Under the pieces are notes generated by a model. It ran no database searches, was not told the origin of the DNA, and was given only the letters and a program-made list of their open reading frames with translations. A stretch of 64,000 nt of DNA. It comes from Patescibacteria group bacterium (lineage in GTDB: Bacteria > Patescibacteriota > WWE3 > JAMCXX01). A program made the translations under genes and the position numbers. This document shows, piece after piece, positions 40,835 to 42,910 of the stretch; position 1 is the stretch's first letter, and each line of letters begins with the position of its first letter. The DNA lies in the NCBI GenBank assembly GCA_023474425.1, contig JAMCXX010000003.1:21712-85711 (forward strand), written 5' to 3'.

Positions 40835-42910
40835 TCAAATATCCAGCTCCGCTTTTTTGGCGTGCGTTTGAATAAACCTTTTACGCGGCGGCACTTCCTC
40901 GCCCATAAGCATCGTAAAAACCTCGTCCGCTTTCTGGGCATCTTCCACATTTACCTGCTTTAAAATTCTTGTTTGCGGGTTCATGGTTGTTTCCCAGAGC
41001 TGCTGCGGATTCATCTCGCCCAAACCTTTGAAGCGCTGGACGTTGATACGAGTTGAAAGTTGAGAGTTGAAAGTTGAGAGTTGCCTGTTCTTTCCATTTT
41101 CCTCTTCACTTTCCACTTTCAACCCTGCCTTGCCGGCAGGCAGGTTTCCACTTTCCATTTTTCTTTTCTCACCGTCGGAGGCAATCTGTCTAATTATTTG
41201 GTCGCGTTCCTCGTCTGTATAAACATAACTAACTTCCTTCCCTTTCTGAATCCGAAAAAGCGGCGGCTGGGCAATGTAGAGAAAACCGCCGTTAATCACG
41301 TCCGGCAAGTGACGGTAAAAGAAGGTTAAAAGTAGCGTCATAATATGCTGACCGTCCACGTCGGCATCAGTCATAATAATTATCTTGTGGTAGCGCAGTT
41401 TCTGGGCGTCCTTAACTTCACCAATGCCCATACCCAGGGCAATTACCAAGTCTTTCAGTTCTTCGAATTTAAGGACGCGGTCAAGTCGGTTGCGTTCCGT
41501 GTTTAGAAGTTTTCCGCGCAAGGGGAAGATAGCCTGGGCTTTGCGGTCGCGAGCCTGTTTAGCCGAGCCTCCAGCGCTGTCGCCTTCAACCAAAAATAAT
41601 TCCGAGGCGGCCGGGTTTTTTTCCTGGCAGTCGGCCAACTTCCCCGGCAGTCCCCCGCCCTCAAAAGCGCCTTTGCGTATAACGGTGTCGCGGGCGGCGC
41701 GGGCGGCAATCCTGGCTCTGGCGGCAAGAACCACTTTTTCCACAATGGCCCGGGCGTCACCGGGATTTTCTTCAAAAAAGGTATCCAGAGCCTCGTTAAC
41801 CGCCTGGGCCACAGCCGGTTGGACTTCAGGGTTGTTGAGCTTAGTTTTGGTCTGACTTTCAAACTGTAGGCTTTCCGAAGGCATTTTAACGACGACTACC
41901 GCCGTTAATCCCTCCTTCATGTCCTCTCCGGTGATAATTGAATCGGCGCTGTCTTTACCGTTGCCGTTGCTTTGTTTTTTGGCGTAGTCGTTAATCGCCC
42001 GTGTAAGGGCCATGCGAAATCCTGTCAGGTGGGTGCCGCCGTCAACCGTGTTTTTAACGTTAGCAAAACTTTCAATGTTTTCGCTAAAGCTGTCGTTGTA
42101 CTGCATAGCCACCTCGATGGCTAAATCATTAATTTCTTTGCTCACGTAAAAGGTCTTATGTAGAGGCTGTTTGTTTTTATTGAGGGAGTCCACCAGTGAT
42201 TTAATACCGCCTTCAAAATAGTAATGAGCTTCGTCGCCGGTACGGCCGTCTTTAATATGGAAAGCGATGCCGGCAATGAGGTAGGCCCGCTCCTTAACCG
42301 GTTGCAGGATTCTTCCTAAATCGAACTTTACATCTTTAAAAATCTCACGATCAGGACGGAAAATAGTCATCGTGCCGGAGTCAATTTTTTGCAAAATTTC
42401 CTTTTGTTCGGGGCTTAATTTTAGGTTATCCACCCTGACCTCCCTGACCAAAGTTTTGGTGTTGCCGCGTTCGTAGCTTTGTGTATAAAACTTTCTGTTT
42501 TTCTTAACAATGACAATGCAGGTTTCTGCCAGAGCGTTAACTACCGAGGCCCCCACGCCGTGCAGGCCGCCGGAGACTTTGTAGGCGCTGCCGCCAAACT
42601 TGCCGCCGGCGTGGAGTTTAGTCATCACAATTTCCAAGGCCGACTTTTTATACTGAGGCATAATGTCTATCGGAATGCCCCGTCCCTCGTCTATGACGGC
42701 GGCCGAACCGTCATCATTTAAATATATCCAGATATTTCGGCCAAAACCGGCCAGCGCCTCGTCCACTGAGTTATCAATAATTTCCGTGAGGAGGTGGTGA
42801 AAACCGTTAATATCCGTGGCTCCAATATACATTCCCGGACGCTTGCGTACCGGCTCAAGACCTTCTAATACTTGTATATCTTTACCGGAGTAAGAATTCT
42901 TGTCTGGCAT
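40835..42910 (-). CDS. gyrB: DNA gyrase subunit B with a repeat-derived ~41-aa insertion near the C-terminus
   Basis: [29 protein letters not shown]-like, Toprim [23 protein letters not shown] and [19 protein letters not shown]. Confidence 0.97.
41042..41167. mobile_element. composite repeat element inside gyrB (heptamer array, inverted heptamer array, GC hairpin, heptamers)
   Basis: AGTTGAA AGTTGAG AGTTGAA AGTTGAG (41051-41078). Then TCCATTT..CACTTTC CACTTTC. Hairpin CCTGCCT-TGCCGGC-AGGCAGG (41124-41144). Then TTTCCAC TTTCCAT. No target-site duplication identified. Confidence 0.6.

Follow-up and report, generated by a model that had tools for sequence, protein, structure and literature searches.

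A 21-nucleotide GC-rich hairpin and heptamer repeats nested in frame within gyrB of a Patescibacteria group bacterium

We analysed a 64,000-nucleotide stretch of contig JAMCXX010000003.1 from a Patescibacteria group bacterium (hereafter the window), whose gyrB gene, encoding DNA gyrase subunit B (GyrB), carries an insert of repeat-derived DNA that is in frame and lineage-specific. The insert consists of three nested layers: a purine-rich tract coding largely for lysine and glutamate (K/E), a 33-nucleotide (nt) heptamer array with close kin elsewhere in the window, and a 21-nt GC-rich hairpin (the 21-mer, CCTGCCTGCCGGCAAGGCAGG on the coding strand) that is found in more than one phylum as a clean insertion polymorphism. 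We consider it probable that these layers of repeat DNA were stacked in a permissive disordered loop, and that the loop was lengthened by repeat processes acting at the DNA level and not by acquisition of a protein domain. Taken alone, the gyrB case is a moderate curiosity; the more surprising part is a 21-nt unit that behaves as a micro-insertion element across phyla.

Anatomy of the insert and its place in the gyrase linker

The gyrB gene is intact. A protein identical to its product (100%), from a Patescibacteria group metagenome-assembled genome (MAG), is recorded under the name DNA gyrase subunit B, all four gyrase B Pfam domains are found, and every residue that is invariant across 62 relatives is retained, including the Toprim acidic cluster and the QR.KGLGEMN motif. 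The extra DNA occupies positions 41051-41170 (Table 1), and on the coding strand its layers read GAGAAAAGAAAAATGGAAAGTGGAAA, then CCTGCCTGCCGGCAAGGCAGG, GTTGAAAGTGGAAAGTGAAGAGGAAAATGGAAAGAACAGG and finally CAACTCT and CAACTTT units in strict alternation, two of each, closed by CAACT; Tandem Repeats Finder scores this last array at period 7 with 4.7 copies and at period 14 with 2.4 copies, both at 100%. On the + strand the hairpin at 41124-41144 is spelled CCTGCCTTGCCGGCAGGCAGG, and 41051-41083 appears as four to five alternating AGTTGAA/AGTTGAG units with inverse-oriented CACTTTC-type units beyond them. An initial annotation of this DNA had described in-frame repeat DNA at 41042-41167, composed of AGTTGAA/AGTTGAG units, CACTTTC-type inverse units, a hairpin and further units and open in the gyrB frame, and we found it as described, with a translation exactly as quoted there.

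The same annotation had held the heptamer blocks to be partly self-complementary, and the purine-rich block is indeed 82-88% complementary to the CAACTYT block across 16-22 nt. This complementarity allows the transcript to fold into a long imperfect hairpin, and in the predicted fold of the insert a GC hairpin (7-bp stem, 7-nt loop) adjoins it (z = -2.86; 2 of 200 shuffles equally stable). Every layer has a length divisible by 3 and, read in the gyrB orientation, contains no stop codon, so that the whole stack can be translated as a flexible loop while gyrase stays functional. Searched with Rfam covariance models, the window yielded only two tRNAs at the gathering score, with matches at chance level (E of at least 0.9) across 40950-41260, and no terminator-like site was found at the insert.

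The insert lies in the linker that we measured from PPLF.I to QRFKGLGEM. Among 120 GyrBs from Microgenomates, together with some 80 GyrB loci of archaea and other phyla, most have a linker of 28-33 aa, while many Patescibacteria GyrBs have K/E/A-rich linkers of 50-83 aa; the linker measures 48-65 aa in the five closest GyrBs (73-75% identity) and 70 aa in the window. The insertion of about 41 aa proposed by the initial annotation therefore holds against the basal linker, over which the excess is some 37-41 aa, but not against the nearest relatives, over which it is only about 20 aa. A codon-level alignment locates this smaller difference: a K/E-rich scaffold (G.G...E..E.EE.EN.GK..RIN) is common to the window GyrB and to P0004 and P0005, and the blocks that are extra in the window are one around NLPAGKAG and one made of the 11-aa array peptide plus S. 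The upstream purine tract (GEKRKMESG) aligns loosely with the K/E-rich linker of P0003-P0005, and the 33-nt CAACTYT array is not present in P0004, P0005 or P0006. Orthologues thus carry homologous, ordinary coding DNA for the K/E-rich part of the insert, and not for the array or the hairpin. A scan of genome contigs for a close relative returned none (best match, 62% identity).

Structure prediction agrees with the earlier suggestion of a surface linker. In an AlphaFold model built from 62 homologues, residues 587-618 have predicted local distance difference test scores (pLDDT) below 50 and are without secondary structure, between a confident helix (566-585) and a strand (622-626) that leads into QRFKGLGEM. 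The insert is thus predicted to be a disordered surface loop, in a model whose overall quality is moderate (mean pLDDT 71.5). The phmmer alignment to the solved E. coli GyrB splits exactly at the insert, between query residues 182 and 200 as against E. coli residues 586 and 732.

Other GyrBs also vary at this linker. Those of P0029, P0032, P0036, P0056, P0075, P0013 and P0038 (Microgenomates, Levybacteria) have different extensions of 20-40 aa, for example STDNSLPRADKEAVVRR and PANQREISGKSDGE, which, judging by their sequences, may be repeat-derived too. The linker of P0003, a candidate for the same inverted-heptamer layout, was rejected, having periods of 21, 27 and 34 nt, no inverted pair and a fold z of +0.37.

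The 21-mer and the heptamer arrays beyond gyrB

Public metagenome contigs were scanned for the 21-mer with AACCTGCCTGCCGGCANGGCAGG, a search pattern that requires the AA prefix. The exact 23-mer occurs in at least 120 contigs, with unrelated flanks and GC contents of 0.29-0.57. Among the matches listed, the free position of the pattern is A in nearly all, which is the window's own sequence, the 21-nt core is exact in 126 of 136 copies, 69 of 131 copies lie deep within long open reading frames (ORFs), 55 of those 69 read as NLPAGKAG, and the host genes include those for DnaK, DnaX, TsaD, LysRS and a Dpp5-like peptidase. Further GyrBs are among the hosts, with the copy in the linker in L188 and at the N-terminus in L158, and the GyrB of L082 (63% identical to that of the window) has AACCTGCCTGCCGGCAGGGCAGG at a nearby position of the same linker, where, in comparison with P0013 and P0038, the hairpin appears as a clean 7-aa insertion, NLPAGRAG. 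The exact 21-mer was found neither in plasmids (7.3 Gb) nor in phages (2.3 Gb), where there were only chance-level partial matches, and seven of the 2.9 million viral contigs in IMG/VR contain it.

Two host genes could be compared with their orthologues in depth. The DnaK carrier belongs to Candidatus Daviesbacteria, and its insert is present in 1 of 100 close orthologues with a readable site, the others reading ...CIKDAKIE.... The Dpp5-like carrier (L092) belongs to Ferruginibacter/Chitinophagaceae (Bacteroidota); its insert, which directly follows the signal peptide, occupies an identical position in 5 of 120 orthologues (P0241-P0360), the filled ones being scattered across the identity ranking and one of the orthologues, P0246, carrying a decayed NSLPAGKAV. 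Such a patchy pattern would imply, from the sequences compared, that the element either entered one hotspot repeatedly or was lost precisely. In nucleotide pairs of filled and empty orthologues, with flanks identical at 101 of 120 and 103 of 120 positions, the difference is exactly 21 nt after AA, and no target duplication was found in these pairs. In two phyla at least, a fixed 21-nt unit is thus polymorphic as an insertion.

The 21-mer amounts to 7 codons and is stop-free in all six frames, and genic copies strongly favour one orientation and one codon phase, in which an AAR lysine codon is split into AAC...GGR; the two orientations number 76 and 13 within genes as against 10 and 8 between co-directional genes. 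We read this frame bias as probable selection on the translated peptide, and not as a mechanistic bias, which would point to translation of the insert and against its removal. The orientation bias was also considered as a sign of the insertion mechanism and rejected, as selection on the peptide or ascertainment through the AA prefix fits better with orientations that are even between co-directional genes. Nor is the 21-mer evidently the joined ends, or footprint, that a longer element left behind, for half-sites were not found paired around any plausible parent and all pairs are two complete copies. In the literature searched, no paper was found on NLPAGKAG or on the 21-mer as a DNA string in either strand, nor on such elements in Patescibacteria.

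Some copies are arranged in more complex ways. Head-to-head dimers, in which a forward copy is directly followed by a reverse copy in a GC-rich context, occur in two viral contigs of IMG/VR, at L210 632-673 and L212 2003-2044. The essential TsaD gene of the metagenome contig L115 (Ga0268279_1003050) has two copies, one near the N-terminus that reads NLPAGKAG and one in the loop before VSGGHT, which has one mismatch and the opposite orientation and is embedded in a heptamer array (NFQFP-CLAVRQA-ISNFQFP).

The 21-mer and the heptamer arrays are repeatedly nested. In gyrB the arrangement is AAATGGA AAGTGGA AA(21 nt)GTTGA AAGTGGA AAGTGAA, and removal of the 21 nt restores ...ESGKLKVE...; the 21-mer likewise interrupts heptamer arrays that are in register once it is removed in L113, L163, L141, L143 and L179, and the arrays in the pilin leaders of L110 and L106 are interrupted in the same manner. 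Strong period-7 arrays are found at 10 of 123 21-mer sites among the matches listed, compared with 0.1% of control AA positions (about 80-fold), and the flank profile of the 21-mer has A-rich positions every 7 nt across the junction. The idea that heptamer arrays are accumulated 7-nt target duplications of the 21-mer was rejected, for copies outside arrays are without flanking duplication.

Within the window the pattern CCTGCC-N(1-12)-GGCAGG has two sites, compared with none in 100 shuffles. The second, noted by the initial annotation at 15984-16002, is confirmed as a recurrence of the hairpin, in the form of a 19-nt variant (CCTGCCTGCCGCAGGCAGG). Its surroundings are a tRNA 3'-half remnant (15966-16028, + strand) that directly follows tRNA-Arg(CCG) and is not called by ARAGORN or Rfam; without the 19 nt, this remnant reads GGGCG-TTCGAGT-CGCCC-TGGGCGC-A-CCA, which amounts to a perfect T-arm, the 3' strand of the acceptor and CCA. 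An att-site scar left by an integrated element is one possible origin.

The heptamer array of gyrB belongs to a larger family in the window. Arrays number 12 at period 7, compared with 1 each at periods 6 and 8, and there are 15 tandem CAAYTNT-type arrays where shuffles predict 1.3. Together with the two palindrome sites, these counts exclude a chance origin. The family, enriched more than 10-fold, is located for the most part in pilin leaders, with one in-frame member in the gene for release factor 1 (RF1). Two arrays, at 50465-50496 and 51395-51426, share 90% identity with the gyrB array over 32 nt. The gyrB core as a whole (purine units, spacer, CAACTYT units) has a 57-nt match of 70% identity at 51403-51457, oriented in the same way relative to the gene. 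A run of three heptamers brings translation back into frame, and (CAACTTT)n is read as QLSTFNF whichever frame is used; since TGA occurs on the opposite strand (antisense AGT TGA), only a single array orientation can persist within a gene. The syntenic relative L086 (75% GyrB identity, with the same pilus-holB-gyrB-PPase-gyrA order) is without heptamer arrays, from which it follows that the family expanded recently.

Table 1. Repeat features of the window and the gene that carries the insert
Feature	Position	Strand	Remarks
gyrB coding sequence	40835..42910	-	691 aa, intact ORF; DNA gyrase subunit B
Purine-rich heptamer-like tract, upstream part (GAGAAAAGAAAAATGGAAAGTGGAAA)	41145..41170	-	GEKRKMESG; direct repeats D1, D4
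21-nt GC hairpin (CCTGCCTGCCGGCAAGGCAGG, coding strand)	41124..41144	-	Translated (N)LPAGKA(G); inside purine-rich tract, in register
Purine-rich tract, downstream part (GTTGAAAGTGGAAAGTGAAGAGGAAAATGGAAAGAACAGG)	41084..41123	-	13 aa; 5' arm of long imperfect hairpin; inverted repeats I1, I2, I4
33-nt heptamer array (CAACTCT/CAACTTT) x4.7	41051..41083	-	11 aa; 3' arm of long hairpin
19-nt GC hairpin variant (CCTGCCTGCCGCAGGCAGG)	15984..16002	+	Interrupts T-arm of tRNA 3'-half remnant
(TTCAACT)4.7 array	50465..50497	+	Pilin leader peptide LQLSTFNFQL before G|FTLIE; closest relative of gyrB array
Intergenic/pilin-leader hairpin element	51394..51461	+	AAGTTGA/AAGTGGA units, spacer, then CAACTTTCAA; 19-bp hairpin
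Composite heptamer element with GC-rich inserts	52967..53128	+	Upstream of and in frame with pilin gene; layout analogous to gyrB insert
(TCAATTC)4 array	52403..52431	+	Pilin leader
Heptamer array	46573..46609	+	Between pilT and pilC
(CAACTAT)3CAACTCT array	5530..5557	-	In frame in RF1 gene; most of 12-aa insertion

Most arrays lie in the type IV pilus locus (43755-54111; pilB, pilT, pilC, pilD and about nine pilins), where they are intergenic and extend into the coding sequence of leader peptides just before G|FTLIE, as in MTKSNLQLSTFNFQLIRG|FTLIE. The element at 51394-51461 has the arrangement and orientation of the gyrB core. The GC-rich inserts of the pilin composite (53024-53093) were considered as members of a dispersed family and rejected, with no recurrence in 2.3 Mb of loci. 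Four pilin genes (50405-53128, + strand) carry arrays in the leader coding sequence before G|FTLIE, an arrangement found again in L110 and L106; gain or loss of one or two units would put the pilin out of frame, and by analogy with Neisseria opa the arrays look like candidate slipped-strand phase-variation switches. Heptamer arrays at 51950-51989 and 52393-52435 flank a small ORF in the pilin cluster (51991-52245, + strand), which by eye resembles the four-helix-bundle type of 23S rRNA intervening-sequence protein.

The 12-aa insertion in RF1 lies at a loop and corresponds exactly to a 12-residue gap in the alignment to T. maritima RF1. The RF1 gene itself (4999-5745, - strand) is only 248 aa long and aligns to residues 87-317 of the T. 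maritima protein, the N-terminal domain 1 being missing; 43 nt separate it from the end of the upstream L31 gene, with a purine-rich heptamer array (5743-5793) between the two. In other genomes, long degenerate heptamer arrays, partly in inverted pairs, are located directly downstream of gyrB at L027 11915-12003 (Anaerolineae) and L082 3115-3224. As these two genomes are unrelated, heptamer arrays at gene ends appear, from their sequences, to be widespread beyond the lineage of the window.

Weighing the explanations

We regard the gyrB insert as probably a stack of repeat-DNA layers accommodated by a permissive loop. The first layer would be the purine-rich K/E-coding tract with its heptamer-like periodicity, inherited in part from an ancestor common with the nearest relatives. 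The second would be the 33-nt (CAACTYT)n array, a member of a genome-local family roughly complementary to the purine tract, which may have originated by slippage or gene conversion. The third would be the 21-nt GC hairpin, which would have entered the purine tract behind an AA dinucleotide without target duplication; more speculatively, a single-strand DNA enzyme that recognises hairpins could have moved it in trans, and the HUH/Y1 type would fit the lack of duplication. Most likely the insert is tolerated selfish DNA, neutral rather than useful. It is also possible, though we would not call it probable, that the 21-mer is a minimal mobile unit not previously described, without coding capacity, terminal repeats or target duplication, which is copied, or else precisely inserted and excised, in trans by machinery common to Patescibacteria and Bacteroidota and favours heptamer arrays and A-rich sites. 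It would survive in essential genes owing to its length of 7 codons, its lack of stops in all six frames and the harmlessness of the peptide NLPAGKAG, and the gyrB insert would then be a fossil record of successive hits at one permissive loop.

Several points weigh against this account. The sequence comes from a single-contig MAG and its protein cluster has one member, hence an assembly error is possible; the long-hairpin fold is only modestly more stable than shuffles, and the analogous pilin elements are not significant. The statistics on frame and orientation derive from a search pattern with an AA prefix, which favours purine-rich coding strands, and no transposase, whether or not resembling the tyrosine transposases associated with repetitive extragenic palindromic (REP) sequences (RAYTs), was seen among window ORFs of at least 110 aa, judged by eye only. 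It is possible, moreover, that the loop has a function, such as contacts with DNA or a partner as in the E. coli insertion, or that the mRNA hairpin does.

The initial annotation had instead proposed a single composite resembling a MITE (a transposable element of the miniature inverted-repeat kind), and one could envision a unit of about 120-126 nt, similar to a MITE or a Rickettsia palindromic element (RPE), that transposed as a whole into gyrB. The two partly complementary heptamer blocks with a hairpin between them, the partial look-alike in the same orientation at 51394-51461 and the analogous composite at 52967-53128 would all suit such an origin. However, no target-site duplication was found, the inverted repeats observed are not at sharp ends, and there is no full-length second copy in the 64 kb. 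Its modules also have separate histories, the K/E tract being inherited in part, the array local and the hairpin multi-phylum: the K/E-rich part aligns with relatives that are without the other modules, the 21-mer stands alone in at least 120 other contexts and is there a clean 21-nt insertion, and the GyrBs of L082 and L188 carry the 21-mer without the CAACTYT array. We consider transposition of a single unit unlikely.

We consider equally unlikely an adaptive acquisition at the protein level, in which a lineage-specific loop modulates gyrase and its repetitive nature is incidental. The insert sits at the site of the E. coli insertion, the long K/E/A-rich linkers of many Patescibacteria GyrBs suggest that some extension may be useful, and the NLPAGKAG unit is present at this linker in three GyrB lineages (those of the window, L082 and L188). 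Yet the insert is predicted to be disordered and its sequence is not conserved even at 73-75% identity, and the same peptides are encountered in unrelated proteins and in pilin leaders, encoded by identical DNA and not with synonymous variation.

An artefact of assembly or binning, for example a chimeric join through low-complexity repeats, is a classic consequence of repeats such as these and would be in keeping with a single MAG contig for which no second assembly of the species exists. We nevertheless find it very improbable, given that both flanks are contiguous gyrB in one frame, that the added length is a multiple of 3, that the 21-mer interrupts the purine tract in register with the same nesting in independent JGI, ENA, NCBI and Logan assemblies, and that decayed copies exist (the 19-nt variant in the window and NSLPAGKAV in P0246). 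Least probable of all is removal of the insert before the mature protein, as an intron, an intein or by translational bypass of the kind that skips GC-rich hairpin inserts in some yeast mitochondria: the stable transcript hairpins would be compatible with it, but with no stop codon and no frameshift removal is unneeded, there is no Rfam intron or ribozyme match, the insert is far too short for an intein, and selection on a translated peptide would be expected to produce the strong bias of genic 21-mers to one benign frame (55 of 69 among the matches listed).

Selfish DNA that stays in frame within essential genes has so far been a curiosity tied largely to Rickettsia, and the same tolerance is seen here in Patescibacteria, whose genomes are reduced, at a position where gyrase is already known to take up insertions. 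Classical MITEs and RPEs are far larger than the core unit, whose sequence is the same to the letter in two phyla or more, which raises the questions of which enzyme or template places a fixed 21-nt hairpin without leaving a footprint, whether heptamer arrays are targets or by-products of the 21-mer, and whether micro-insertions routinely create disordered loops in core proteins. In practice, such insertions affect gyrB-based phylogeny, primer design and the homology-based annotation of uncultured lineages.

Comparison with known systems

The proteobacterial GyrB insertion, as in E. coli, is a folded and conserved domain of 170 aa. The window's insert shares its position, between the Toprim core and QRYKGLGEMN, and differs in being 40 aa long, predicted disordered, repeat-encoded and lineage-specific; phmmer found no alignment across the insert to the E. 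coli insertion domain. Compared with a MITE, no direct repeat was found flanking 41051-41170, the only inverted repeats are the heptamer blocks, which are internal and without sharp ends, and no full-length second copy was found in the 64 kb, the gyrB core match given above being the best composite match and the rest being matches at the level of single modules.

RPEs (Ogata et al. 2000, as cited in PMC3184786 and PMC3733652) are units of about 105-146 nt with a CGTC tag, confined to Rickettsia (PMC3733652), and are palindromic repeats that persist in frame in essential genes, in surface-exposed parts of the protein with function kept (PMC3184786). The parallel with RPEs drawn by the initial annotation is apt as a description of behaviour, for here too repeats persist in frame in protein genes (gyrB and RF1 in the window; DnaK, DnaX, TsaD and LysRS elsewhere), but it does not extend to membership of the family: the gyrB insert is a stack of separate modules, its mobile core is 21 nt without CGTC or GTAG and is found in at least two phyla, and its host belongs to the Patescibacteria.

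REPs are GC-rich stem-loops of 20-40 nt, tagged with GTAG or CGTC and mobilised by RAYTs (PMC3733652); they are dispersed, sometimes within ORFs including replication and repair genes, and some are nested in small palindromes (PMC3733652). The 21-mer resembles them in being a GC-rich palindrome with a 7-bp stem and a 7-nt loop, within the REP size range, and in the lack of a target duplication, as expected from HUH/Y1 chemistry. It differs in having no GTAG or CGTC tag when its sequence is read directly, in its low density (2 in 64 kb) and in its identity across phyla, REP families being species-specific; the flank logo of the 21-mer shows only A at -1 and -2, which is partly imposed by the search pattern. 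The closest resemblance is to very small hairpin repeats such as the small dispersed repeats of Nostoc, reportedly hairpin units of 21-27 nt with precise insertions, often nested in other repeats (Elhai et al. 2008, Genome Res), from which the 21-mer differs in phylum and in sequence. Cross-phylum identity like that of the 21-mer is not known to us among such repeats.

The heptamer arrays, for their part, fit the known class of heptanucleotide simple repeats. In the literature (Mrazek et al. 2007, as summarised in PMC4679880 and PMC4692102), heptanucleotide long simple sequence repeats are described as over-represented and as intergenic just upstream of start codons; they include the Beggiatoaceae TAACTGA repeats and the cyanobacterial short tandemly repeated repetitive (STRR) sequences, and some form inverted pairs. 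The rare arrays within ORFs occur only in the stop-free orientation and encode peptides with a 7-aa periodicity such as LSVISYQ (PMC4679880, PMC4692102). The window's arrays are similarly tandem, 7 nt in period, over-represented and 7-aa periodic when translated (QLSTFNF); they differ in lying in pilin leaders and in two essential genes, gyrB and RF1, and in being apparent landing sites for a separate 21-nt element.

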